A stretch of 64,000 nt of DNA from an uncultured Gammaproteobacteria bacterium. GTDB taxonomy: Bacteria > Patescibacteriota > Microgenomatia > Levybacterales > UBA12049. The position numbers and the translations under genes are program-made. This document shows positions 1,877 through 42,304 of the stretch, one piece after another. Below the pieces are notes generated by a model. It worked only from the letters and a program-made list of their open reading frames with translations, had not been told where the DNA came from and did no database searches. The stretch is from positions 1,171 to 65,170 of the forward strand of contig CAZIDK010000003.1 in assembly GCA_964537895.1 (NCBI GenBank), given 5' to 3'. The stretch's first letter is position 1, and the number at the start of each line of letters is the position of its first letter.

Positions 1877-2406
1877 GGTACTACAACATTACTATTAAGA
1901 TTAGACAAACACGAATTAAGCTTAACATTATGGCAATAGACATTGCTTGGGTCTGTACACTTACCATCAGACCAGGAAACTATTACCGTAACGCCAATGC
2001 TTTCATTGGAGCAAGAAACATCAGAACCTTGAGCAATATCCACCTCGCGCACAAAAATTCCGTAGTTTTGTCCGCAAGATGTTGCAGAACTCAAACTACA
2101 GGAACCGGTTGAAGAACCAAGAATACAAGGAGCCGTATCTCCCTGGGCAAGACAATACCTGCGGGCATTATATGCAGAAAATGTTCCCCAACTGGACTGG
2201 CTTATTTGACGCATAACTTCTATTCCTTGTTGGGCGTATTGAGTCGCCTGATTCTGATTTTTTGTATATTGAGTGTTATTAAGAGCCGAAATAACAGCCA
2301 CCGCTATGGCGGATAAAACAAGAACCGCCGCTCCTAAAGCAACTAAAGTTTCGATTAATGTTTGGCCTTTTTCTGTCATAGTCATATTATTTAATATTTC
2401 CCTCAT
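1873..2406 (-). CDS. pilin-like protein with prepilin N-terminal motif (GQTLIETLVAL)
   Basis: Class III signal peptide motif, hydrophobic N-terminal helix, Cys-rich C-terminal half. Overlaps its neighbours by 4 and 20 nt. Confidence 0.75.
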   Translation of the reverse strand: MREILNNMTMTEKGQTLIETLVALGAAVLVLSAIAVAVISALNNTQYTKNQNQATQYAQQGIEVMRQISQSSWGTFSAYNARRYCLAQGDTAPCILGSSTGSCSLSSATSCGQNYGIFVREVDIAQGSDVSCSNESIGVTVIVSWSDGKCTDPSNVYCHNVKLNSCLSNLNSNVVVP

Positions 2407-2875
2407 TGTCTATTTTTATTGTTTTTGCTTGACCGTATGCTGTCAGAACTATATTTCCCCCACCTTGTACGCCGCTGGTAATAACCGGAAAGAAAATAGA
2501 CGTAGTGGTTGTTTGTCCGGAAGCAAGGTTAAATTTAATATTTCCATTATCCGGCAGTGTTATTGTTTGAATCAAATAAGTTCCCAGACAAACGGCGCTT
2601 AAGCTGTACGTTGTGTCGGAAAGAATGTCTACCCGATATCCGCTAAGCGCCTCATTTGAGCACTGGTTTGGTTTTACCTGGGAACTCGCGCTGGATTTGG
2701 CCAAATTTAAAGTTGACGCTAAACTTGCACCCGCAGTTTGAAGCGATTGAGCTCTGCTGTAATTAACAAATGATGCAATACCGATTGTCGAAAGAATTGA
2801 AATTACCGTAAAAACAATAATCAGTTCAAGAAACGTAAATCCTGAAGATAAACTTAATCTTTCTTTTATGTGCAT
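2387..2875 (-). CDS. pilin-like protein (GFTFLELIIV); close paralog of the N-terminal half of 3427..4227
   Basis: Prepilin motif. About 365 bp (2441-2805) is near-identical to 3718-4082. Confidence 0.75.
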   Translation of the reverse strand: MHIKERLSLSSGFTFLELIIVFTVISILSTIGIASFVNYSRAQSLQTAGASLASTLNLAKSSASSQVKPNQCSNEALSGYRVDILSDTTYSLSAVCLGTYLIQTITLPDNGNIKFNLASGQTTTTSIFFPVITSGVQGGGNIVLTAYGQAKTIKIDNEGNIK

Positions 2876-2959
2876 AGATTAAGTATGATAAAGATAAATA
2901 ATTATGTCAATAAAGCTAATGTAAAGAGCTTGAAAGGATTGATTTTGATATTATTTAGC

Positions 2960-3433
2960 CTACAACGTAACCCCTAAGCCTGCTGGATTAAGGGAAGTAT
3001 CACTTAGTGTATTGGCAGGACTCTCTATTACCGTTCCACAGTTTCCTGCATTCCAATACGGATTGTTTGTTCCTGAAGCATTTTTCCAGTAAACCCTGTT
3101 TCCTGTAACTGAATGTCCGGAACATGTACCGGTTGACTGATTCCAGATATACATACCAACATTAGAGTTTGTTCTTTGACCTTGGTAGATTATATTATTC
3201 TCAATCTTGCTGTTTGTTCCTCCCCCGGCTCCCGAGACCGTTACCGTTGTGCCTCCCGAATTTGCCTCATCCGTATCTTTTACTCCGTTTCTGTTTGAAT
3301 CTATTATATATACGTTGCCGTTTATTGTATAGGTTGCGGGGATTGACGTTGGGGTAGGGTAGGGCCAACAGGTGTTGCAGTTGATGCAGGCGTTGATGTA
3401 GTAATACAAACTTCGCCGCTGCACACCTAACAT
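2960..3433 (-). CDS. Cys/Pro-Thr-rich, beta-helix-like repeat domain ORF with no signal of its own; probably the frameshifted C-terminal continuation of pilin 3427..4227
   Basis: Its frame opens only 7 codons before its ATG and lies -1 relative to the upstream pilin's stop. It begins CINCNTCWPYPTPTSIP, continuing the Cys/PT-rich tail of the upstream protein. Repeats such as NNIIYQGQRTNSNVGMYIW and NRVYWKNASGTNNPYW look like parallel beta-helix turns. Confidence 0.45.
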   Translation of the reverse strand: MLGVQRRSLYYYINACINCNTCWPYPTPTSIPATYTINGNVYIIDSNRNGVKDTDEANSGGTTVTVSGAGGGTNSKIENNIIYQGQRTNSNVGMYIWNQSTGTCSGHSVTGNRVYWKNASGTNNPYWNAGNCGTVIESPANTLSDTSLNPAGLGVTL

Positions 3434-4227
3434 CCCGAGCCTGTGCAGCTTTGACTAAACGAGCTTGGGGTACAGGCTCCTCTACCTGTGTAATAATTGT
3501 AGGTGCAGGTTTGCAAGCCCGTTCCGCACTGAACACTGCAGGAACCGCAGGAAGCGCCGGTATTGCAGATTGGTGTAGGCGTTGGGGTTGGAGACGGAGT
3601 CGGTATCGTAGTTGGAGGCGGGGTTGGAGCAGGGGTAGGGGTATTTACGATATTTGTTTTCCCTAAGGTTATAATGCCTTGCGGATTAACTGTTATTGTT
3701 TTTGTTTGATCATGCCCTGTCAGGACTATATTTCCCCCACCTTGTACGCCGCTGGTAATAACCGGAAAGAAAACAAAAGTAGTGGTTGTTTGTCCGGAAG
3801 CAAGGTTAAATTTAATATTTCCATTATCCGGCAGTGTTATTGTTTGAATCAAATAAGTTCCCAGACAAACGGCGCTTAAGCTGTACGTTGTGTCGGAAAG
3901 AATGTCTACCCGATATCCGCTAAGCGCCTCATTTGAGCACTGGTTTGGTTTTACCTGGGAACTCGCGCTGGATTTGGCCAAATTTAAAGTTGACGCTAAA
4001 CTTGCGGCCGCAGTTTGAAGCGATTGAGCTCTACTGTAATTAACAAATGATACAATGCCTATGGTCGAAAGAATTGAAATAACAGAAAAAACTATTATTA
4101 ACTCTAGAAGAGTAAATCCTTCACTTTTTATTAATCTCGGAAAGTGAAGGGTAAACCCTCTATTGCTGAGCTGTTGAATTGCTGAATTGTTGAAATTAGT
4201 TTTCATAGCAATGTAATAATTTAACAA
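3427..4227 (-). CDS. pilin-like protein with a C-terminal PT-rich linker and Cys-rich module (tip-adhesin-like pilin)
   Basis: GFTLLELIIV prepilin motif, then TPTPAPTPPPTTIPTPSPTPTPTP, then CxxC-rich C-terminus. N-terminal 170 aa are a near-duplicate of 2387..2875. Confidence 0.7.
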   Translation of the reverse strand: MLNYYIAMKTNFNNSAIQQLSNRGFTLHFPRLIKSEGFTLLELIIVFSVISILSTIGIVSFVNYSRAQSLQTAAASLASTLNLAKSSASSQVKPNQCSNEALSGYRVDILSDTTYSLSAVCLGTYLIQTITLPDNGNIKFNLASGQTTTTFVFFPVITSGVQGGGNIVLTGHDQTKTITVNPQGIITLGKTNIVNTPTPAPTPPPTTIPTPSPTPTPTPICNTGASCGSCSVQCGTGLQTCTYNYYTGRGACTPSSFSQSCTGSGC

Positions 4228-4236
4228 TGTTTTCGC

Positions 4237-4701
4237 TTACGGGTTTTGTACGGTATAAGACCAATTGGCTGTACCATTACACGGTGATACGTTTGCCGCA
4301 TCTTTTTGACTATCATTTGTGTTTTCCAAACAAGCAATTATCGAATATGTGGCGCCTGTAGAAGAAAAAGTATAACTTCCTCCTAAAGCATCGCATGGAA
4401 TCTTTTGCATATACGTTGTTGTGTTATATGTAAAAGGTAACCCGCAAGTTGGTAAGGACAGCGGATAACTGCTATTGTCTGCTCTGTAAATTTCGAGGGC
4501 AGATTGTATTTGCCTTAAATCTGATTTTTTTTGCGCATCCCTTGCCCTTTGCCTTACGCCTATAAAATTGACCATAAGAAGAGTTGCCAAAACGCCAATA
4601 ATAGCAACAACTATAAGAAGCTCTATAAGCGTAAAACCTTTTTTAAAATTCTGAATTTTGTCCTGAGCTTGTCGAATGGATGAATTATAAATTATTTTCA
4701 T
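4237..4701 (-). CDS. GspG/PulG-like pilin (major pseudopilin-type)
   Basis: KKGFTLIELLIVVAIIGVLA, with the downstream motif LRQIQSALEIYRADNSSYP typical of GspG/ComGC-like pilins. Confidence 0.8.
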   Translation of the reverse strand: MKIIYNSSIRQAQDKIQNFKKGFTLIELLIVVAIIGVLATLLMVNFIGVRQRARDAQKKSDLRQIQSALEIYRADNSSYPLSLPTCGLPFTYNTTTYMQKIPCDALGGSYTFSSTGATYSIIACLENTNDSQKDAANVSPCNGTANWSYTVQNP

Positions 4702-5234
4702 GGTGTGACATTTGGAGTAGATACTCCAAAATTACAAGTTCCTCCGCAAGCGTTAAAAGAAATACCGTTTATTGTTAGACTGGAACAGGCATTTCCACTG
4801 TTACACGCCCCTGGATCGCTACTGCCTCTATCCAGAGAGGCATAAAGATAATAAGATTGTCCAGTAGAGTAGTAAACGTAATTTTTAGAAGCTGTCGGGT
4901 CTTTAGGCAAAAGATTCATGTATGGCTGCCACGATTTCCCCCAATCAATAACTGTTGAACCGGGCGGAACAGTTATTCTGTAAAGCGGTGAGCTTACAGA
5001 AGACAATGGATATTTACCATTATCTTGATAATAGGCCTCTAAGGTTTTTTGCACCTGGGATAAATCCGATTTCCTTCTTGAATCATTTGCCTTTTGAAAT
5101 TGAGCAACAGGATTAAGGGCAACTATTGAGCCCGCAGCCAAGATGGATAATATACCGACAACAACTATTAGTTCTATAAGGGTAAAACCCTTGCTCCGAT
5201 TTGAAATTCTTTTAATCATTTTTATTGTGTACAT
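4698..5234 (-). CDS. GspG-like pilin paralog
   Basis: SKGFTLIELIVVVGILSILA, then LSQVQKTLEAYYQDNGKYP. Confidence 0.8.
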   Translation of the reverse strand: MYTIKMIKRISNRSKGFTLIELIVVVGILSILAAGSIVALNPVAQFQKANDSRRKSDLSQVQKTLEAYYQDNGKYPLSSVSSPLYRITVPPGSTVIDWGKSWQPYMNLLPKDPTASKNYVYYSTGQSYYLYASLDRGSSDPGACNSGNACSSLTINGISFNACGGTCNFGVSTPNVTP

Positions 5235-6091
5235 AAGTTACCGCTGCAAGTTGTAGCTCCCGGTCCGGAATAACAAGTTAGGGTCCCTCCGTATATTGTA
5301 CACTGGTTAGATGTTACACTGTTACAGAGTCCGGCGCTGACCGCAAAGTAATTCGGACTGCAATTAAACGGCGTAGGCGTAGGCGTAGGCGTAGGCGTTG
5401 GGGTAGGAATTCCGCTTCCTGTTGGGGTAGGGATAGGGGGGGTTGGCGTTGGGGTAGGTGTTGGAACAGGCGTTGCGAATAAAGGAGCTGGCAATGAGTT
5501 TGCGGATATGTAAGCGCAATCTACTTTTCCCGATAGCACGCAATAATTATAACCTGAACTTTGATAATCTACCGGCAAACAGTTAGATAGCTCTGTTAAA
5601 GGACAGGAGGTTTGCACGTCTTGGGCTGAAGATAATTTAGCAAATAGCACGTTCCACTGCGGACATTGAGTTGTATCTGTTTGGTAAAGATATGACGGAT
5701 TAGAGCCATTTGAAAAATCCGGATCTTGAGGAACTTTTTGCATATACACTATTGAACCGCTGCTAAACGGAGCTCCCATTGTTAACGAAATAGGATAACA
5801 GTTTTTATCACTATAGTAAGCATCAAGAGAGTTTCTTATTTGGAATACATCATGCTGACGCTGTGCATCTCTTGCTTTCTGGAGCTGCCTTATCGGATTA
5901 ATAGTCACTATTAGAAAGGTGATAAGCACAGACAATATAATAATTACAACTACTAATTCTATTAGGGTAAACCCAAAAAAATTATTATTTTTGGAATTAA
6001 TAAATCTCCATAAAAGAGGGCTAAAATTGTACCTAATATTAAAAAGGGGCCAAAAGGAATTGTGTCTTTTATAGACCTTTTTTTTCGCCAT
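5222..6091 (-). CDS. pilin-like protein with a long leader, GspG-like N-domain, long PT-repeat linker and Cys-rich C-terminal module
   Basis: FGFTLIELVVVIIILSVL; (TP)n linker TPVPTPTPTPTPPIPTPTGSGIPTPTPTPTPTPTP; C-terminal CxxC-rich segment. The annotated start overlaps the peptidase gene by 130 nt, so the true start is uncertain. Confidence 0.65.
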   Translation of the reverse strand: MAKKKVYKRHNSFWPLFNIRYNFSPLLWRFINSKNNNFFGFTLIELVVVIIILSVLITFLIVTINPIRQLQKARDAQRQHDVFQIRNSLDAYYSDKNCYPISLTMGAPFSSGSIVYMQKVPQDPDFSNGSNPSYLYQTDTTQCPQWNVLFAKLSSAQDVQTSCPLTELSNCLPVDYQSSGYNYCVLSGKVDCAYISANSLPAPLFATPVPTPTPTPTPPIPTPTGSGIPTPTPTPTPTPTPFNCSPNYFAVSAGLCNSVTSNQCTIYGGTLTCYSGPGATTCSGNLCTQ

Positions 6092-6831
6092 ATAATTAGT
6101 ATGATACCTATAATTGCTCCTGTCAAGAAAGCTAAATACAAGGCTAAAATTATCTTCGGAAAACCCAGTATGAGCCCAAGCAAAAACGACAGTTTTACGT
6201 CTCCAAAACCCATACCTTTACCCTTGGTAATCAAGAATAGAATAAGAAAAAAAACGAATGCCCCAATAGCGGAAAAAACAAAATTGAAAATTGAAAATTG
6301 CCCGTCCCGAGTGAAATCGAGGGGAAAATTGAAAATTAAATAAATAGAGCTTACGATTATTGCCGGGAAGACTACTTTATCCGGAATAATTCCAAATTTT
6401 AAATCTTCAAAAAAAATAACAATAAAACTTGAGACAATAAATAAATAATAAACCAGGCTGATTAAAGATTGAAGATTAAAGATTAAAGAATTAGAAATTG
6501 ACCCGCCTGCAACGCTTTGCATAGCAATGCGGGCAGGAAATTGAAAATTAAGTCCATAAACAAACATAAATGTGGTTAAGAATAAAATTCCCGTAGAAAA
6601 CTCTATGATAGGGTAGAATATACCAATGGACTTATGACAGTATCTGCATTTTCCCTTCAGCATTAAAAACGAGAGTAGGGGAATGAGATCATACCAAGCA
6701 AGTTCTTTTTTACAAAACTCGCAATGTGATCTCCCTTTTGCAATTGTTTCCTTACGAGGCAATCTGTCGATAGCTACATTTAAAAAGGAGCCGATGAAAA
6801 CTCCTATTGCAAATATGAATAAAAACTCCAT
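5962..6831 (-). CDS. pilD: prepilin peptidase (A24 family, PilD/ComC-like) carrying two in-frame repeat-element insertions
   Basis: N-terminal CxxC..CxxC (CEFCKKELAWYDLIPLLS..GKCRYCHKSI), multiple TM helices and a GFGDVKL-type motif. Confidence 0.8.
   Translation of the reverse strand: MEFLFIFAIGVFIGSFLNVAIDRLPRKETIAKGRSHCEFCKKELAWYDLIPLLSFLMLKGKCRYCHKSIGIFYPIIEFSTGILFLTTFMFVYGLNFQFPARIAMQSVAGGSISNSLIFNLQSLISLVYYLFIVSSFIVIFFEDLKFGIIPDKVVFPAIIVSSIYLIFNFPLDFTRDGQFSIFNFVFSAIGAFVFFLILFLITKGKGMGFGDVKLSFLLGLILGFPKIILALYLAFLTGAIIGIILIIWRKKRSIKDTIPFGPFLILGTILALFYGDLLIPKIIIFLGLP
6280..6338. repeat. GAAAATTGAAAATT-flanked GC-core element (variant core CCCGTCCCGAGTGAAATCGAGGGG) in frame inside pilD
   Basis: Encodes FNFPLDFTRDGQFSIFNF. 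Same flanks and orientation as the copy at 1803-1867. Confidence 0.65.
6494..6552. repeat. second element type (core CCCGCCTGCAACGCTTTGCATAGCAATGCGGGCAGG, GAAATTGAAAATT flanks) in frame inside pilD, followed by AGATTAAAG x3
   Basis: Encodes LNFQFPARIAMQSVAGGSISNSLIFNLQSL. The same 36-nt core recurs in intergenic DNA at 43794-43829 and, as a variant, at 18113-18152. Confidence 0.65.
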
Positions 6832-6868: not shown

Positions 6869-7501
6869 TTATTTTGTGCACCAGTAGCATTGAGTTGTCC
6901 CGCCATTTCCTTCACAAGCTGTTTGAGGACTGGCAACTGGTGTTCCATCTTTATTATATATAGTAGCTAAAGATTTTCTCTGAGATGTCGATTGCGGCCT
7001 ATAACAGCCTGTAAGCGTATTGGCAGCCAGATCATAAGTAACAAATATTTCTTTCAAGATAGTTGTTGCAGTTTGAAAGCCGGATTTTAATTCTTTTTCA
7101 TTAACAAGTGCTGTCGTACAGGTATTAAGAGGGGTATCGTTTAAGGAAATATTCGGATTGGTTGCTGCGCTTGGGGCCACGCCTCCATTACATGCTGATC
7201 CGCCATTAGCAATGGTATCCCATGGAAAGGTATTACGCGTTGTGTAATATCTTACATTAGCATTAAGATACTCAACTAAAGCATTTTTTGTGTTTGCATC
7301 CTGCGCTTTTTTAAGCTGTTCAAAAGGATCAATTGTTGCAACGAGTGCTGCTGCCAAAACGCCGAGGATTCCGATAACAACCAGAAGTTCGATGAGGGTA
7401 AAGCCTGCGGTCTTTTTTGATAATCCTAATAATTTCTTTAACTTCTCTATCAATTTTTTCATGTCTATATCAAATGTAAACATTTTTAAATTCCTTGTCA
7501 A
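6869..7501 (-). CDS. type IV pilin, major-pilin-like; the likely true start is Met14 at 7462 (MKKLIEKLKKLLGLSKKTAG|FTLIELLVV)
   Basis: Canonical G|FTLIELL cleavage/methylation site and hydrophobic helix. Sits between pilC and pilD. Confidence 0.8.
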   Translation of the reverse strand: MTRNLKMFTFDIDMKKLIEKLKKLLGLSKKTAGFTLIELLVVIGILGVLAAALVATIDPFEQLKKAQDANTKNALVEYLNANVRYYTTRNTFPWDTIANGGSACNGGVAPSAATNPNISLNDTPLNTCTTALVNEKELKSGFQTATTILKEIFVTYDLAANTLTGCYRPQSTSQRKSLATIYNKDGTPVASPQTACEGNGGTTQCYWCTK

Positions 7502-7522: not shown

Positions 7523-8728
7523 TTACTGTATTGACGATATCAAACTGTAAATCGGCGTAATAACGGAAATTATTAAAAAAGCAACGCCAATGCCCAAAAC
7601 AACCATAATAAAAGGCTCCATTGCCGTTGTTAAGGTTTTAACTGTTTGATCAACATCTCTTTCGAAATATTCCGAGGCTTTTGCCAAAGATTCATCTACT
7701 TTTCCGGTCTGCTCTCCGATTTTTACAAGCTGGATAAGGATTGACGGAAAAAGGGGATAAACAGACATTGCGTCTCCTATCGTAACGCCTTTTTCTACCT
7801 GCTTGGAAACGTCTTTAATCGCATTTCTATAATGTATGTTTCCGGCCGTATCGGCGGTTTGCAACAGGGCATCAACAACCAGGGTTCCTGTTCCCACCAA
7901 AAGACCAAAGGTTCTTGAGAATTCGGCCAGTATTGTCTGTCTTATAAGTTTTCCAAAAACCGGAAGTTTTAAAATTAAACTATCTGTTATAAGCTGTCCC
8001 TCAATTGTTTTGTGCCAACGTCTAAATAAGACTACCCCTCCCACAAGCAGTATTAACATGATTGGCCAAAAAGTTTGAATAAAATCAGAAAATCCTATTA
8101 CTATTTGTGTTGGGAGGGGAAGGGGGACATTAAGATTTTGGTACAAAACCGTAAGCTGGGGAATAACAAAAATCATCATAATAAACATAACTACAACCAT
8201 AAGAATTATTACTATGACAGGGTACATAAGCGCGGATTTTATCGTGCCTTTTAGCTTTGCCTCTTTTTCAAGATTATCGGCAAGTCTTACGAGAACCTTA
8301 TCCAAGAGCCCTGACGCTTCTCCCGCTTTAATAAGGGAAACATAGATAGTCGAAAAAACAGCCGGATATTTTGCTATCGAAGAAGAAAAAGGCTTACCCT
8401 CTTCGACATCGTTAATAATACTGTTTACTACTTCCTGCATGGCCGCGCTTTGCACTTGATCTTTTAAAATTGCTAAGGCCCGCATTAGCGTAAGACCGGA
8501 AGAAAGCATTGAGGAAAGCTGTCTTGTAAAAATGATTAGGTCTGTCGACTTTACCTTGCTAAACATCGGCAAAATTTTAGATATGGGGTTTTCCTGTTCT
8601 TTTAGAATATGAATAGGCATCAGGTCTTTACTGCGGAGATATAAAGCCGCAGCGTTTATATCGTTAGCGTCAATTAAACCCTGTTCTATTTTACCCGTCT
8701 TTGTTGCGGCTTTATAACGAAGTTTCAT
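7523..8728 (-). CDS. pilC: type IV pilus / T2SS platform protein, GspF/PilC family
   Basis: 401 aa, two T2SSF-type repeats, three TM segments. Adjacent to pilT and pilB. Confidence 0.88.
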   Translation of the reverse strand: MKLRYKAATKTGKIEQGLIDANDINAAALYLRSKDLMPIHILKEQENPISKILPMFSKVKSTDLIIFTRQLSSMLSSGLTLMRALAILKDQVQSAAMQEVVNSIINDVEEGKPFSSSIAKYPAVFSTIYVSLIKAGEASGLLDKVLVRLADNLEKEAKLKGTIKSALMYPVIVIILMVVVMFIMMIFVIPQLTVLYQNLNVPLPLPTQIVIGFSDFIQTFWPIMLILLVGGVVLFRRWHKTIEGQLITDSLILKLPVFGKLIRQTILAEFSRTFGLLVGTGTLVVDALLQTADTAGNIHYRNAIKDVSKQVEKGVTIGDAMSVYPLFPSILIQLVKIGEQTGKVDESLAKASEYFERDVDQTVKTLTTAMEPFIMVVLGIGVAFLIISVITPIYSLISSIQ

Positions 8729-8731
8729 AAT

Positions 8732-9799
8732 TTAACCGACCAGACGCAGCAAGTCATCGGGACGCAAAGAATAGCTTTTCGCCATCTCAAGACTGACACT
8801 GCCTGATAAAACCAGCGACGCAAGTGAAGATTCCAGGGTAATCATTCCGGCGTCTTGAGAAGTTTGAATAATCGAATCTATAAGATGCGTTTTCCCTTCT
8901 CTTATGGTGCTTGCTATTGCCGTGCTTCCAAGCAAAACCTCGACAGCCGGTATCCTTCCGCCGTTTATTTGGGGCAAAAGTCTTTGTGAGATTATACCTT
9001 TAAGAGTTGAAGCAAGCTGGGTTTTTATCTGTCCCTGCTGGGTTGAAGGAAAAGAATCTATAATTCTGTCTACTGTTTGCGCGGCAGAATTAGTGTGCAA
9101 TGTTGAAAATACCAAATGCCCGGTTTCCGCAATTGTTATTGCCGAGGCAATTGTCTCGGAATCTCTCATTTCTCCAACCAAAACAACGTCCGGATCTTCT
9201 CTAAGGGCAGATTTTAAAGCCGTCGGCCACGAATGAGTATCAATGTCCATTTCTCTTTGGGAAATTATGCTTTTTCCGGCAGGATAAATATATTCAATCG
9301 GATCCTCGATGGTTAAGATATGAGCAGACCTTTTAAGATTTATTTCATTGATAATTGCGGCCAGAGTTGTTGATTTTCCGTGGCCGGTTGGTCCCGTAAG
9401 TAAAATAAATCCCTGTTTTAAATCCGCAAAAGAATGAAGTATTTTTGGTAAACCAAGTTCCTCAACTGTTCTGATGTTTGGCATCAGGAAACGCAGCGCA
9501 GCGCTTAAAAAACCTCTTTGATAATAAATATTTACCCTGAATCTGCCCAAATTTCCGTAATCGCCTCCGCCAAACCCAAAAGAAAAATCAAGTTCTTTAT
9601 TATTTAGAACAAGTTCTTTCTGCTGGGGCGTAAGCAGAGAAAAAATCATGTTTTCTACAACCTCATGAGTCAATGCGGCATAATTTGAAATATATCTCAA
9701 TGACCCGTCTATTCTAATAACAGGTGGTATTCCCGGTAAAATGTGCAAGTCAGACGCATTATTTTTTATTGTTAAATTTAACAGTTCGTTAATATCCAT
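8732..9799 (-). CDS. pilT: PilT-family pilus retraction ATPase
   Basis: 355 aa. Walker A GPTGHGKSTT. N-terminal ASDLHILPGIPPVIRIDGSL matches PilT/PilU. No N-terminal GspE_N domain. Confidence 0.85.
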   Translation of the reverse strand: MDINELLNLTIKNNASDLHILPGIPPVIRIDGSLRYISNYAALTHEVVENMIFSLLTPQQKELVLNNKELDFSFGFGGGDYGNLGRFRVNIYYQRGFLSAALRFLMPNIRTVEELGLPKILHSFADLKQGFILLTGPTGHGKSTTLAAIINEINLKRSAHILTIEDPIEYIYPAGKSIISQREMDIDTHSWPTALKSALREDPDVVLVGEMRDSETIASAITIAETGHLVFSTLHTNSAAQTVDRIIDSFPSTQQGQIKTQLASTLKGIISQRLLPQINGGRIPAVEVLLGSTAIASTIREGKTHLIDSIIQTSQDAGMITLESSLASLVLSGSVSLEMAKSYSLRPDDLLRLVG

Positions 9800-9873: not shown

Positions 9874-11601
9874 TTATTCCTGTGCTACTCTTAGAACTTC
9901 TTCTACGGTTGTTATGCCCTGAAGTACTTTAATATACCCATCCTGTTTCATTGTAATCATTCCCTCTGAAATTGCCTCTTTTTCTATTGTACTACTATCA
10001 GGATTTGATAATACAAGTGCCGAGATTTTATCACTGACGGGAAGCGTCTCGAAAATTCCTATCCTTCCTAAATAACCGGAGTTTCCGCAATCTTCACAGC
10101 CTTTTCCTTTATAAAGCTTAAGTTCACCGTTTTGAGCAGGAAAAAGATTGCCTAAAACAGATTTCATTTCGGTAACTATCTGGGGAAGGGGAGCGTAACT
10201 AACCTTGCAATGACTGCAAATTTTTCTGACAATTCGTTGTCCTAAAATGGCCGTCATTGTGGAAGCCAATAGAAATCTTTCCGCTTTTAAATCCACGAGA
10301 CGGGGCAAAGCTCCCGCAGCGTTTGAGGTATGAAGGGTTGAAAAAACCAAGTGCCCTGTAAGAGCAGCCTGAATAGCCAATTCCGTAGTTTCCTGATCGC
10401 GGATTTCTCCGACAAGAATAATATTCGGATCTTGTCTAAGAAACGACCTAAGGCCGGTTGCAAAAGTAAGGCCTACGGCAGGGTTTATCTGTACCTGATT
10501 AATTCCCGGCATTTGATACTCAACCGGATCCTCCAAAGTCATAATATTTACCCTTGTCGTATTAAGTTTGTTTAAAACAGAGTAAAGAGTTGTGGTTTTA
10601 CCACTTCCGGTAGGCCCTACAACCGTAACAATTCCGTGCGGTTTTAACATTGCGGTTTCAAGATTTTTCAGTGAAACACCGGTTAAACCTAACTCCTGAA
10701 GCGAAGGCACGCCGCCTGATTTCCGCAAAAGCCTCATAACTATTTTTTCACCAAAAACCGTGGGAAGAACCGAGATGCGAAGGTCAACCTCTTTATCTTC
10801 CACTCTAAAATTAAAACGGCCGTCTTGGGGAGTACGATGTTCGTCTATTTTCATTTCTGACAAAATTTTTATTCTGGAAAGAACTGATTCCTGAACGCTT
10901 TTAGGAAGAGAGAGTCTGTCGTATAAAATTCCGTCAATTCTGTAACGCACCCTAACCCTGTCTTCTTGGGGCTCAATGTGAACGTCGGATGCCCTGCTGG
11001 TTACCGCATATTCAAGAATTGTCGAAACAATTTTGGCAACCGGAGCCGATTTTATAATTAGCGCTATATCTTTGCTATCAACTGTTTTGATTTTATTGTA
11101 TTCCTCCGTTTCCTTTATTGCTTCTCCAACCTGTCCGACTATTTCCTGTCTGTATTGCTGATTAATTGCGCGGGCTACGTCCGTTGGGCCGGCCGCAAAA
11201 GATTTTACCGTAAGTCCTGTTTTCTGGCGGACAAAAGAAAGGGCATCCAAATCTACGGGATTACTCATTGCAATGGAAAGAACTTTTGTTTTGTCGTCGT
11301 ACATAAAAGGTACGACTAAAAATCTTTCGGCAACCGCTCTTGGAACAAGAGCTAAAGCCTGCGGAGAAAAAGACGTACTTTCCAAATCTATAAACGGAAT
11401 TCCCAAAAGTTTTGCTTTCGCTTCCGTTAAGTTTTGTTCGCTAACATAATTAGAGGAGGTTAGAATTGACTCGTCCGAAACATTTTGAGTTGCGCTTTTT
11501 ACCCTTACATCGTTATACTGCTCCTGGGTTAACAGGTGCTGTGCGAGTAAAACATCGCTTAATGTTTGATTTTTTGTCGGAGTTTGTGAATCACTGGGCA
11601 T
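9874..11601 (-). CDS. pilB: type IV pilus assembly ATPase, GspE/PilB family
   Basis: 575 aa with an N-terminal T2SSE_N-like domain. Walker A GPTGSGKTTT. Tetracysteine CSHCK..CEDCGNSGY. Confidence 0.9.
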   Translation of the reverse strand: MPSDSQTPTKNQTLSDVLLAQHLLTQEQYNDVRVKSATQNVSDESILTSSNYVSEQNLTEAKAKLLGIPFIDLESTSFSPQALALVPRAVAERFLVVPFMYDDKTKVLSIAMSNPVDLDALSFVRQKTGLTVKSFAAGPTDVARAINQQYRQEIVGQVGEAIKETEEYNKIKTVDSKDIALIIKSAPVAKIVSTILEYAVTSRASDVHIEPQEDRVRVRYRIDGILYDRLSLPKSVQESVLSRIKILSEMKIDEHRTPQDGRFNFRVEDKEVDLRISVLPTVFGEKIVMRLLRKSGGVPSLQELGLTGVSLKNLETAMLKPHGIVTVVGPTGSGKTTTLYSVLNKLNTTRVNIMTLEDPVEYQMPGINQVQINPAVGLTFATGLRSFLRQDPNIILVGEIRDQETTELAIQAALTGHLVFSTLHTSNAAGALPRLVDLKAERFLLASTMTAILGQRIVRKICSHCKVSYAPLPQIVTEMKSVLGNLFPAQNGELKLYKGKGCEDCGNSGYLGRIGIFETLPVSDKISALVLSNPDSSTIEKEAISEGMITMKQDGYIKVLQGITTVEEVLRVAQE

Positions 11602-40069: not shown

Positions 40070-40627
40070 CTAGGCTTTTTCGCTGTAGGCTCCGGTTCTC
40101 GTATCAACCCTGATTCTGTGTCCCGTGTTAACAAAAAGGGGCACCTTAATTTTTAAGCCATTTTCTAAAATTGCGTCTTTAAAAACATTTGTGGCAGAAT
40201 TTCCCTTAACTCCGAGGGCCGTTTCGGAAACTTCAAATTCCATTTTCGGAAGAAGAGTAAGCGAAAGCGGTTCGTCTCCTAAAAAGCTGATTGAAAAATT
40301 GTACCCTTCTTTCAAATAATCCTTTTCATAATTAATAAGTTTAAGCGGAACGTCTATTTGTTCAAAAGTCGAAGGATTCATAAAATACGCAGATTCTTCA
40401 TCTTTATATAAATACTGAAGATCTTTCTTAAAAACATTAACGTTATTTACTTTTGCTCCGTTTATAAAGCTTTTATCAATAGTTGTACCTGTTCTTAGGT
40501 TTTTAACTTTTACTTTAATATTGGCGCTTCCCCGCCCCATTTTAATATGCTCGTAAGACAGAACTCCTAAAAGATTTCCATTTTCCTCAAAAATTGTTCC
40601 TGCTCGAAGCTCTGTTACGGAAATCAT
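40070..40627 (-). CDS. efp: elongation factor P; ORF is open to 40735 but the real start is MISVTEL
   Basis: KMGRGSANIKVKVKNLRTGTTIDKSF is the KOW-like domain I. Stop overlaps pepA by 4 nt. Confidence 0.9.
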   Translation of the reverse strand: MISVTELRAGTIFEENGNLLGVLSYEHIKMGRGSANIKVKVKNLRTGTTIDKSFINGAKVNNVNVFKKDLQYLYKDEESAYFMNPSTFEQIDVPLKLINYEKDYLKEGYNFSISFLGDEPLSLTLLPKMEFEVSETALGVKGNSATNVFKDAILENGLKIKVPLFVNTGHRIRVDTRTGAYSEKA

Positions 40628-42144
40628 GATAATAAGTTTAGAACGGTTCTGACGCCGTGTCCGGTACCTCCTTTTGGTCCTAAATCGGTAGCCTTTGACG
40701 CAAAAGCAGGTCCTGCGATATCCATGTGCGCCCAAGGCTTTCCATCTACAAATTCTTGCAAGAAAAGCGCTGCCGTTATTGCACCCCCGTAGCGTGAGTT
40801 TGGAATATTGGCAATGTCTGCCACTTCACTTTTATTCATATCTTTGTATTCTTTTTCCAAAGGCAGTTCCCACATTTTTTCTCCGGCGGCAAAAGCGGCC
40901 TTTTTTATTCTTTCTGTTAAATCATGATTGTTTGAGAAAAAACCGGTAATATCGTTTCCCAAAGCTACATGGCAAGCACCTGTAAGCGTTGCGAAATCAA
41001 TGATTTTTGAAGCTCCTTCTTTAACGGCATAAGAAAGACTATCCGCCATTGTTACACGCCCTTCGGCATCGGTATCTAAGATTTCTATTGTTTTGCCGTT
41101 CATGGCACGAACTACATCCCCGGGAACGAGCGATGTACCCGATATCGAATTCGGCGTTGCGGCAATAAGACCCATAACCGGAAAATCAGGCTTAATTGCT
41201 GAAATTACCGAAAAGACTGCTAAAACAATTGCCGCCCCTGCCATATCCATTTTCATATCCTGCATACCGCTTCCCGTTTTAACATTGATTCCTCCACTGT
41301 CAAAAGTTATCCCTTTTCCTACAATTGCCAATTTTTCCTTGGCTTGCCCAGCGGAGCCTTGGCGAAGTTGGGGTTTGTATTCTAAATGAATAAATTTCGG
41401 AGGAGTAGCCGAAGCCCTGGCAATTCCCAAAAAAGCACCCATTCCGAGCTTTTGGGCTTTGGCTTTGTCATAAATTTTACAAGTAATGTTTTCATCTTTC
41501 TTGGCAAGGTTTAATGCCAATTCGGCAAGAAAAGTCGGTGTCGCAACGGAAGATTGTTCGTTAACTAAATCACGGGCTAAAATTGCTGCCTGGGCGTAAA
41601 GCTTTGCTTTTTCAATCCCCTCTTTTACGCCTTTAGCGTTTGCTTTTGAAATTATAACTGTTGATAATTTCCTCTCACCCTTTTCTTCTTTAGCCTGATA
41701 TTTATTAAACTCATAGCTTCCCAAAAGCAGCCCTTCCCCTATTAGCTGAATTATCATTGAAGCGGGAAAAGACATTTCATTTTCGGTTGGCAAAGATAAA
41801 GTTATTGAATCAACCTTCTTTTTCATTTTCATCGACAAAGAGCCCGTTGCCCTTCTTAAATCGTCTGCTGTAAACTCGTTTTTTCTACCAAGACCCAGAA
41901 CAATAATCCATGAGGCAAGAACGCCTGTTTGCGGAAAAATATTCAGTGTCTCGCCCCGTTTTGCGCCAAATTTTGAGGTTTGGGCAATTTTACTAAGGAC
42001 TCCCTTAAGTACTTTATCTAAGGTTGAAAAGTCAGCAAGAGGTTGATACTTTAGCGCTTTTCCTTTTTCGTTTTGAAAAGCAAACACTACGATTGCGTCG
42101 GCCGAAATTTTACTCAATGAATTATCCGAAAACTCAAATTCCAT
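40624..42144 (-). CDS. pepA: leucyl aminopeptidase (M17); the ORF extension to 42258 is spurious and would overlap the tRNA
   Basis: GKGITFDSGG and DTDAEGRV motifs. Real start MEFEFSD. Confidence 0.9.
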   Translation of the reverse strand: MEFEFSDNSLSKISADAIVVFAFQNEKGKALKYQPLADFSTLDKVLKGVLSKIAQTSKFGAKRGETLNIFPQTGVLASWIIVLGLGRKNEFTADDLRRATGSLSMKMKKKVDSITLSLPTENEMSFPASMIIQLIGEGLLLGSYEFNKYQAKEEKGERKLSTVIISKANAKGVKEGIEKAKLYAQAAILARDLVNEQSSVATPTFLAELALNLAKKDENITCKIYDKAKAQKLGMGAFLGIARASATPPKFIHLEYKPQLRQGSAGQAKEKLAIVGKGITFDSGGINVKTGSGMQDMKMDMAGAAIVLAVFSVISAIKPDFPVMGLIAATPNSISGTSLVPGDVVRAMNGKTIEILDTDAEGRVTMADSLSYAVKEGASKIIDFATLTGACHVALGNDITGFFSNNHDLTERIKKAAFAAGEKMWELPLEKEYKDMNKSEVADIANIPNSRYGGAITAALFLQEFVDGKPWAHMDIAGPAFASKATDLGPKGGTGHGVRTVLNLLS

Positions 42145-42206
42145 AGTGCATATTGTAACATTTGCACTTCGAAAAATAAAGCCTTTCTGGTATAATATGT
42201 GCGTTA

Positions 42207-42289
42207 GGGCAAGTGGCGGAATGGTATACGCGGTAGTCTCAAAAACTACTGGTCGCAAGGCCGTGAGGGTTCGACTCCCTCTTTGCCCA
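42207..42289 (+). tRNA. tRNA-Leu (anticodon CAA), class II with long variable arm
   Basis: Acceptor GGGCAAG/UUUGCCC + A73. Three-bp D stem. Anticodon stem GUAGU/ACUAC with loop CUCAAAA. Variable arm UGGUCGCAAGGCCGU. T arm GAGGG-UUCGACU-CCCUC. A TATAAT lies at 42191-42196. Confidence 0.88.
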
Positions 42290-42304
42290 CTAGGGTTCGC
42301 CGGG

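Follow-up and report, generated by a model that had tools for sequence, protein, structure and literature searches.

A 64,000-nucleotide (nt) stretch of DNA (the window, in which all coordinates given here are positions) contains the minor-pilin portion of a type IV pilus cluster from the genome of an uncultured, ultrasmall bacterium of the Patescibacteria, or Candidate Phyla Radiation (CPR). Central to this locus are gene B, which encodes a modular pilin, gene A, which encodes a plain one, and, between them, an open reading frame (ORF) of 157 codons (ORF157), all three on the minus strand. It is likely that A and B are an old pair of FimU/GspH-like minor pilins, that the core of A was overwritten by that of B through gene conversion, and that ORF157 is the decayed tail of a formerly longer, modular B. 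An earlier reading of this DNA, made without database searches (the sequence-only reading), had taken the similarity for a recent tandem duplication and ORF157 for part of one modular tip-adhesin gene split by a frameshift.

The repeat reported in that reading, 2441-2805 in A against 3718-4082 in B at a constant offset of 1277, has 12 mismatches over 365 nt (96.7% identity), with 227 nt (2502-2728 and 3779-4005) free of any mismatch. Outside it the identity between A and B drops fast, to 36–56% in the leader and 3' end and to 79% in the transmembrane helix. The relative L006 (GCA_964364925.1) has the same plain/modular pair, and comparison of the window genes (wA, wB) with those of L006 (6A, 6B) separates the ends of the genes from their cores. 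Promoter and leader are 36–39% identical between wA and wB and 95–96% between wA and 6A, and the 3' end is 56% identical between wA and wB and 96% in both wA-6A and wB-6B. In the core (2552-2662), wA and wB are 100% identical, wA and 6A 76%, wB and 6B 89%, and wA and 6B also 89%; being closer to 6B than to 6A, the core shared in the window is of B type.

The sister contig L013 (ENA ERZ27245806) places this replacement in time. It is 97.4% identical to the window over the ORF157 relic (3377-2960), 100% over the 3' end of A and 98.0% over the PilV-like gene that follows. Within A, the flanks of the converted tract are 94–100% identical between the window and L013, whereas the core has 75.7% identity over 2553-2662 and 87.5% over 2663-2766, which argues that about 200 nt of A were overwritten by B after the split from L013. 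Judged from these alignments, the near-identity of the two genes is most readily a recent B-to-A gene-conversion tract, present in the window lineage only. In L006, a local similarity of 91% between A and B lies in another part of the core, which suggests that gene conversion between them recurs.

The sequence-only reading was right that there are two tandem pilin genes, one of them elaborated into a linker-plus-module pilin, but its recent tandem duplication does not stand: the pair must be old, since L006 carries it with orthologous 5' and 3' ends, and what followed the L013 split was conversion. The length and identity of the repeat, with its long identical stretch, would also be expected of a recent simple duplication, or of an assembly artefact joining two strain alleles, after which one copy would have gained its linker and module; the DNA comes from a metagenome-assembled genome, and three other assemblies break 95–150 nt upstream of their gene A. 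Such an origin is nevertheless most improbable, because L006 and L013, obtained from different samples with different assemblers, have this pair, spacer and promoter too, because at their 5' and 3' ends A and B share 36–79% identity with each other but 84–96% with their own orthologues, and because only the core of A departs from L013. Campbell-type integration of a 1277-nt circle and a fresh unequal crossover were rejected as well, the pair with its orthologous ends and promoter being already present in L006. The three broken assemblies (L010, L011 and L012) are independent metagenome contigs that carry an A-type gene, and all end just past the conserved promoter, as would fit either assemblies broken by the repeated pilin core or a module region that varies within the population.

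The translation of gene B matches the public protein P0001 exactly. The sequence-only reading had counted 266 amino acids (aa) from a TTG at 4227; the start is better placed at the ATG at 4206, which gives the 259 aa of P0001 and agrees with the orthologues (MKT...). B exceeds the cut-offs of N_methyl (22.4 bits against 21.2) and TIGR02532 (19.2 against 16.3), has a class III signal peptide (...SEG/FTLLELIIVFSVISILSTIGIV, the stroke marking the cleavage site), and among 60 homologues its residues G30, F31, T32, L33 and E35 reach at least 90% conservation. An AlphaFold model that used the alignment of these 60 sequences consists of a helix at residues 33-83 followed by seven strands, with block-mean predicted local distance difference test (pLDDT) values of 89–98 for residues 31-180 and values above 90 for about 35-185; the pilin fold is recognised by the succession of these elements, a Foldseek search of the PDB with the full-length model having returned no significant match. 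Beyond the pilin module, B continues for 71 residues, a 24-aa proline/threonine (PT) linker and a 47-aa unit with eight cysteines, and thus has the layout of a modular pilin; its plain paralogues and orthologues stop where the linker begins. The cysteine-rich module contains no recognised non-pilus domain, whereas its counterpart in L006 does (Laminin_G_3, 3.3e-23).

The DNA of the linker and cysteine-rich module (3430-3642) has a GC content of 56.5% against 38% for the window, and its real frame scores below the third frame (a listed 89-aa ORF at 3267-3536) in codon usage; either an effect of amino-acid composition or recently imported DNA would produce such a score. A word-indexed homologue search with the cysteine-rich module and its read-through found no relatives. 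A likeness of the module (CSVQCGTGLQTC...) to the thrombospondin type-1 repeat was considered and rejected, as it found no support in Pfam (E up to 10) or in PDB sequences.

The doubled cleavage motif that had been noticed in the leader of B is real (G17-FTL ... G30-FTLLE), the second G-F-T-L motif being created by a 13-codon in-frame insertion that is absent from the orthologues of L001 and L006. By class III signal-peptide rules, cleavage is expected after G30 (4117-4119) and not after G17, since only the second GFTL motif precedes Glu+5 and the hydrophobic helix; the helix of the model begins at residue 33. The leader of gene A (MHIKERLSLSSG), a possible source of this insertion, resembles it only in CAC, AGATTAA and the GFT codons. 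The leader of B in L006 (L006:1752-1880) has a 42-nt GC-rich insert (RQPARFDARRARQA) between CAATTCAG repeats, and that of L001 has CAATACAA repeats; the B-type leader-coding region seems to be a hotspot of insertion or slippage.

Gene A also encodes a class III signal peptide (...SSG/FTFLELIIVFTVISILSTIGIA); it scores 19.9 bits against N_methyl, just under the cut-off, and 18.4 against TIGR02532, above the cut-off, and its orthologues P0004, P0007, P0008, P0010 and P0012 have an identical leader and C-terminus type. A promoter scan placed a promoter-like site ahead of A (TTGACA at 2905-2910, a 17-nt spacer and CATACT at 2882-2887), and this region is conserved although the modules upstream of it differ: the 44 nt ahead of the ATG of A are 95% identical to L006, and the whole spacer (2876-2959) is 96.4% identical to L013.

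Gene A heads the minor-pilin genes and is followed by three pilin-like genes, the first of which (1873-2406) overlaps its 3' end by 20 nt and has a weak, below-cut-off PilV match (TIGR02523, E 1.8e-4). This order is conserved in L001, L003, L005, L009 and L010, and in L001, L005, L009 and L010 PilM comes next after the three pilin-like genes, which, with A or B, would make up a priming or tip set. PF12019 (GspH) is matched at E up to 0.01 by nine of the 60 homologues (best 2.6e-5), among which no other pilin globular-domain family was matched. Together, sub-threshold sequence evidence and gene order point weakly to both A and B being FimU/GspH-like.

Comparison with relatives reveals how differently this slot can be filled. 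The first gene of the pair in L006 encodes 731 aa, arranged as pilin, PT linker, LamG domain, a second PT linker and a further ~270 aa, with the leader type of B and an identical '...TITVNPQGIITLGKTNIV'-PT junction; a short spacer with the same TTGACA-17-CATACT site follows, and then a 161-aa pilin with the leader (MHIKERL...) and C-terminus (...KIDNEGNIK) of A. Other relatives have a single gene at the slot, plain in L001 and L003 and modular in L005 (445 aa, Gly-rich), L008 (406 aa, DUF1349) and L009 (294 aa, Cys-rich), and across the family the modules that follow the PT linker include DUF1554, DUF1349, LamG, DUF4082, Gly-rich and Cys-rich types. The homology with L013 begins at 3377 of the window; upstream of it L013 has a LamG end where the window has the cysteine-rich module. 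This breakpoint, with different modules beyond it, argues that recombination inside the linker has replaced the proximal module. In L013 (L013:1-230) the LamG frame ends at a TAA right after ...HYNKGVAP and the PT linker goes on in the +1 frame (C-run GCCCCCTAA), the TAA being either a natural stop or another frameshift in the B gene of L013.

ORF157 holds pieces of two domains. An exhaustive HMMER search returned 350 relatives, which fall into two classes. Residues 26-70 are 56% identical to the start of a repeat in P0062, one of the giant surface proteins with PT linkers; Pfam SdrD_B (PF17210; profile length 112) is matched at 1.6e-14 by the P0062 repeat and not by ORF157, which keeps ~45 aa of a complete repeat of ~95–112 aa. 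Residues 71-157 are 62% identical to residues 510-595 of the 595 of P0064. Homologues of this part carry Pfam Beta_helix/NosD, and in many of the hits the match runs to the very end of the protein, ...VTL. A complete domain of ~270 aa, as in P0077 and P0080, is not preserved: ORF157 aligns only with the last 86–87 residues and has no hit to Pfam Beta_helix (PF13229). The earlier description of ORF157 as beta-helix-like therefore applies to residues 71-157, which resemble the C-termini of Beta_helix proteins, and not to the remainder. The fragments meet at ...TVTVSGAG/GGTNSKIENN. A scan of genome contigs with ORF157 found only L002, an unrelated Bacteroidota-type beta-helix protein that helped to name the domain, and two scans of metagenome contigs, with ORF157 peptides and with a 24-nt core DNA pattern, gave no matches.

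The same SdrD_B/beta-helix junction, with the same frame offset, is found in L013. The relic ends at the native C-terminus of the beta-helix domain, at the position where gene B ends in L006 and just upstream of the promoter of A, which argues that it was once the end of B. On this comparison ORF157 appears not to be a gene but a frame that is open by chance, lying over what decay has left of the distal part of a longer B. The idea of a single modular gene that has been split is thus retained in so far as ORF157 was formerly the distal part of B, although one frameshift at 3425-3455 does not describe the damage.

The ATG of ORF157 overlaps the TAG of B (GGATGTTAG) and lies in the -1 frame, as had been described. 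Past the TAG, the frame of B reads VCSGEVCITTSTPASTATPVGPTLPQ..., with two more cysteines and an ST/P linker, and a codon-usage scan favours the pilin frame for 3430-3370 and the ORF157 frame only after ~3370; over its first ~25 codons, ORF157 resembles sequence read out of frame. The long PT linker of L013 lies in the ...TPVGPTLP frame and the PTSIPATYTING... fragment in the -1 frame, and the DNA at the linker does not differ between L013 and the window, the CCCC run at 3351-3354 (a candidate site of the frameshift) included. Since the frameshift and the internal deletion are both common to the independently assembled L013, they are inherited and not sequencing errors. Two lesions, a TAG nonsense codon and a 1-nt frameshift near 3351-3377, are more likely than a single shift at 3425-3455. 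From the three causes that the sequence-only reading had offered (programmed frameshifting, a pseudogenising lesion or a sequencing error), the truncated domains, the inherited lesions and the further lesions of L013 single out the second.

The other two causes would make B and ORF157 one working modular tip-adhesin gene, with the break either bridged by programmed -1 frameshifting or introduced by a sequencing error. The overlap of stop and start, the 157 open codons, the long single ORFs with distal domains that relatives have as B orthologues and the termination of ORF157 at the native C-terminus of its domain family all fit such a gene, which we regard as highly improbable even so. The 25-nt stretch 3430-3454, the only one in which the frames could be joined, contains no slippery heptamer X XXY YYZ (the zero-frame sequence of 3454-3427 is AGT CAA AGC TGC ACA GGC TCG GGA TGT TAG), and the historical frame runs beyond the TAG and shifts later, so that two lesions are needed. 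L013 has the same offset, which speaks against a sequencing error, and does not keep a two-frame arrangement with an intact downstream frame: the relic has no start codon there, its first 19 codons, the ATG included, being replaced by unrelated sequence with stops, and an extra A (a 1-nt insertion) near window position 3005 ends the frame 14 codons early. Joining the 266 and 157 aa, as had been proposed, would not give a foldable tip adhesin but a tail in which an SdrD_B repeat is cut to 45 of its ~110 aa and a beta-helix to 87 of ~270 aa, and none of the 150 best relatives of ORF157 has a prepilin motif or is a pilin. A fused ORF in relatives, which had been named as a check, exists in the form of the uninterrupted 731-aa ORF of L006, but its modules are unrelated to ORF157.

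Alternatively, ORF157 could encode a small protein in its own right, translationally coupled and assembled from pieces of domains, such as a cytoplasmic or chaperone-like partner for B. Start codons that overlap an upstream stop are found in several genes of the cluster, the frame is open, and among its differences from L013 (97.4% identity) non-synonymous changes are not in clear excess. We consider this improbable, given the replaced start, with stops in frame, and the frameshifted 3' end in L013. Moreover, ORF157 has no signal peptide or prepilin motif when judged by eye, in agreement with the sequence-only reading, it is not called as a protein in the public record, a word-indexed search found no relatives and no full-length relatives were found, and its single-sequence AlphaFold model is unstructured (mean pLDDT 30), which is a weak test.

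If ORF157 is the fossil of a longer B, the most likely history of the locus is as follows. An ancestral modular B (pilin, PT linker, one or more modules, linker, SdrD_B and beta-helix) would have stood upstream of a plain A. Before the window and L013 split, the distal part of B would have been crippled by a 1-nt frameshift in the linker and by an internal deletion that joined the beginning of the SdrD_B repeat (45 aa) to the final 87 aa of the beta-helix. In the window lineage, a cysteine-rich module that now ends at the TAG would have been recombined in, with a breakpoint near 3377, and afterwards the core of B would have converted that of A, replacing ~200 nt. Functionally, A and B may compete for one adaptor position, between a PilV/W/X-like tip complex and the pilus shaft, and pili would then either be bare or display, near the tip, a disulphide-rich module borne by a flexible PT stalk; as A has its own conserved promoter, the A:B ratio could be regulated. 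By analogy, attachment to a host cell or substrate would be the likely use. Gene conversion would keep the assembly interface of the paralogues alike, while the C-terminal modules would turn over by recombination.

Several points weigh against this reading or parts of it. The shared adaptor position is drawn entirely from the adaptor role of FimU/GspH (PMC8897410) and the modular-pilin concept (PMC8179133). Against PF12019, B scores 18.2 bits, below the cut-off of 21 (E 3.5e-3, over profile positions 1-108 of 108), and in addition to the negative Foldseek search of the PDB, the PDB profile hit to FimU has an E of 0.02 and covers helix residues only. Searches of Pfam (E up to 10) and of PDB sequences gave no match for the cysteine-rich module, and this C-terminal part of B is modelled by AlphaFold with low confidence (pLDDT below 55). 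The case for the TAG as a nonsense codon rather than a natural stop consists of a plausible in-frame continuation and a 60-nt codon-usage signal. Finally, ORF157 is still open over 157 codons and 97% conserved with L013; the 11 substitutions in the relic, by eye ~6 non-synonymous and 4–5 synonymous, are too few to show neutrality, and some residual function of ORF157 is possible.

A more speculative extension, which we think unlikely, is that the plain/modular pair acts as a built-in module-exchange cassette for DNA taken up from relatives, in keeping with the difference between a cysteine-rich and a LamG module in genomes that are 97–98% identical in the flanks. The homology arms of such a cassette would be the pilin core and PT linker on one side and the promoter of A with the B-identical core on the other; these bacteria, presumably host-dependent as cultivated Patescibacteria are, could change their attachment specificity fast, conversion would maintain the arms, and relics such as ORF157 would be by-products or raw material.

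Table 1. Coordinates of the pilus cluster genes and of the features of genes A and B and ORF157 in the window.
Feature	Position	Strand	Remarks
PilB-like ATPase	9874-11601	minus	Pfam T2SSE; MshEN among cluster hits
PilT-like ATPase	8732-9799	minus	Pfam T2SSE
PilC	7523-8728	minus	Pfam T2SSF
Pilin	6869-7501	minus	Pfam N_methyl among cluster matches
Prepilin peptidase	5962-6831	minus	Pfam Peptidase_A24
Pilin with PT linker and Cys-rich end	5222-6091	minus	
Two GspG-like pilins	4698-5234 and 4237-4701	minus	Pfam T2SSG among cluster hits
Gene B, modular, putatively FimU/GspH-like minor pilin	3427-4206	minus	259 aa; P0001
Gene B leader	4117-4206	minus	
13-codon in-frame insertion	4108-4146	minus	HFPRLIKSEGFTL; creates second G-F-T-L motif
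Gene B pilin module	3643-4116	minus	
Copy-B arm of repeat	3718-4082	minus	probable conversion donor; perfect identity over 3779-4005
Gene B PT linker	3571-3642	minus	24 aa; TPTPAPTPPPTTIPTPSPTPTPTP
Gene B 8-Cys module	3430-3570	minus	47 aa
Gene B stop TAG	3427-3429	minus	
In-frame continuation of B past TAG	3377-3426	minus	VCSGEVCITTSTPASTA; part of putative swapped-in Cys-module segment
Linker remnant	3351-3376	minus	inherited 1-nt frameshift inside; TPVGPTLP (B frame), TCWPYPTPT (ORF157 frame)
ORF157, open frame over relics	2960-3433	minus	
Relic 1, end of PT linker and first ~45 aa of SdrD_B-type (Cna-B-like) repeat	3224-3358	minus	ORF157 residues 26-70
Relic 2, last 87 aa of ~270-aa right-handed beta-helix domain	2963-3223	minus	ORF157 residues 71-157
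Native stop of beta-helix relic	2960-2962	minus	
AT-rich spacer with promoter-like site of gene A	2876-2959	minus	22.6% GC
Gene A, plain, putatively FimU/GspH-like minor pilin	2387-2875	minus	162 aa; P0002
Copy-A arm of repeat	2441-2805	minus	probable conversion recipient; converted tract about 2555-2755
Downstream minor-pilin-like genes	1873-2406 (PilV-like), 1247-1876, 558-1184	minus	N_methyl hits

Close homologues of the genes are found in Patescibacteria metagenome-assembled genomes, and a peptidase and assembly machinery lie beside A and B, as judged by Pfam (Peptidase_A24, T2SSF and two T2SSE ATPases). Reassignment of TAG, or another alternative genetic code, was considered and rejected: the 56 listed ORF ends comprise 28 TAA, 15 TAG and 13 TGA, and long genes are intact under table 11. 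The pilin slot just downstream of the prepilin peptidase gene (5222-6091) is a second slot with variable modules, which holds a PT linker and Cys-rich end in the window, LamG in L006 (L006:1-600) and NHL beta-propeller repeats in L008 (L008:1577-2848); L001 and L005, compared by size alone, have similar-sized genes there (283 and 286 aa).

An element of ~60 nt lies in frame, on the minus strand, inside two different genes, at 1790-1850 in the leader of the pilin 1247-1876 (...IFNFPRPRQVKRGGQFSIFNS...) and at 6270-6330 in a loop of the prepilin peptidase (...IFNFPLDFTRDGQFSIFNF...). It consists of AATTTTCAATTTTCCC, followed by a GC-rich centre and then by CGGGxCGGGCAATTTTCAATTTTCAATT, and its 22-nt core occurs exactly twice (chance expectation 0.01); possibly this is a small insertion element that coding sequence tolerates. 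The only RNA gene found in the window is a tRNA-Leu(CAA) at 42207-42290 on the plus strand, overlapped by a listed ORF on the minus strand (40624-42258, TTG start) whose real start probably lies farther downstream.

Cultivated Saccharibacteria bind their hosts by means of type IV pili (PMC11623550). Such pili are leading candidates for the means by which Patescibacteria find and hold their hosts, which makes the module of an adaptor-type minor pilin a plausible determinant of specificity. The A/B locus illustrates how quickly such a module can be swapped or lost between near-identical genomes while the pilin scaffold is, in our reading, kept uniform by gene conversion. It also carries a warning for annotation: what passes for a recent duplication in a metagenome-assembled genome may be a conversion tract within an old pair of paralogues, and an open frame of the ORF157 kind may be a fossil. 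Repeats of this kind are, besides, spots where assemblies tend to break.

Modular pilins are widespread and architecturally diverse, with examples in the CPR (PMC8179133). In PilB and PilC of Streptococcus sanguinis and in large minor pilins of the CofB/TcpB type, as in B, an N-terminal pilin module that bears a class III signal peptide is connected by a linker to an extra C-terminal module, which is thought to be shown at or near the pilus tip, and, as in the family of B (LamG, DUF1554, DUF1349, DUF4082, Gly-rich), many architectures are built on one scaffold (PMC8179133). Unlike these, B has as its module a 47-aa unit with eight cysteines and no recognised domain, on a long PT stalk instead of a short loop, and its putatively GspH/FimU-like scaffold is paired with a plain paralogue and trailed by a decayed distal part.

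FimU/GspH proteins are adaptors between the tip subunits and the filament, in a family that has diversified in ligand binding (PMC8897410). FimT and FimU of Pseudomonas, Acinetobacter and Legionella resemble A and B as two paralogous adaptor-type minor pilins, one a plain assembly subunit that heads the minor-pilin operon and the other specialised for ligand binding through its C-terminal region (PMC8897410). In contrast, FimT binds DNA through a short tail and not a grafted module, and the membership of A and B in this family is suggested by sub-threshold PF12019 scores and gene order. Large surface proteins of the CPR that combine PT linkers, SdrD_B repeats and beta-helices (e.g. P0062, 2288 aa) match the ORF157 relic in building blocks and linker style, but the window has only fragments of them, and pilins are absent from the 150 best matches of ORF157.

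Gene conversion among pilin genes is a classic phenomenon, as in the antigenic variation of Neisseria pilE/pilS. Both there and at the A/B locus a tract would be transferred non-reciprocally between nearby pilin sequences to yield mosaic genes. Unlike in Neisseria, the conversion between A and B would homogenise the conserved core of two expressed paralogues rather than diversify a surface-exposed region, and silent cassettes, a guanine-quadruplex and dedicated machinery are not in evidence at A/B. What the locus adds to these systems is a well-resolved case from the Patescibacteria, in which a pair of plain and modular, putatively adaptor-type pilins has a core that evolves in concert, while modules are swapped and decay between genomes that are 97–98% identical in the flanks.

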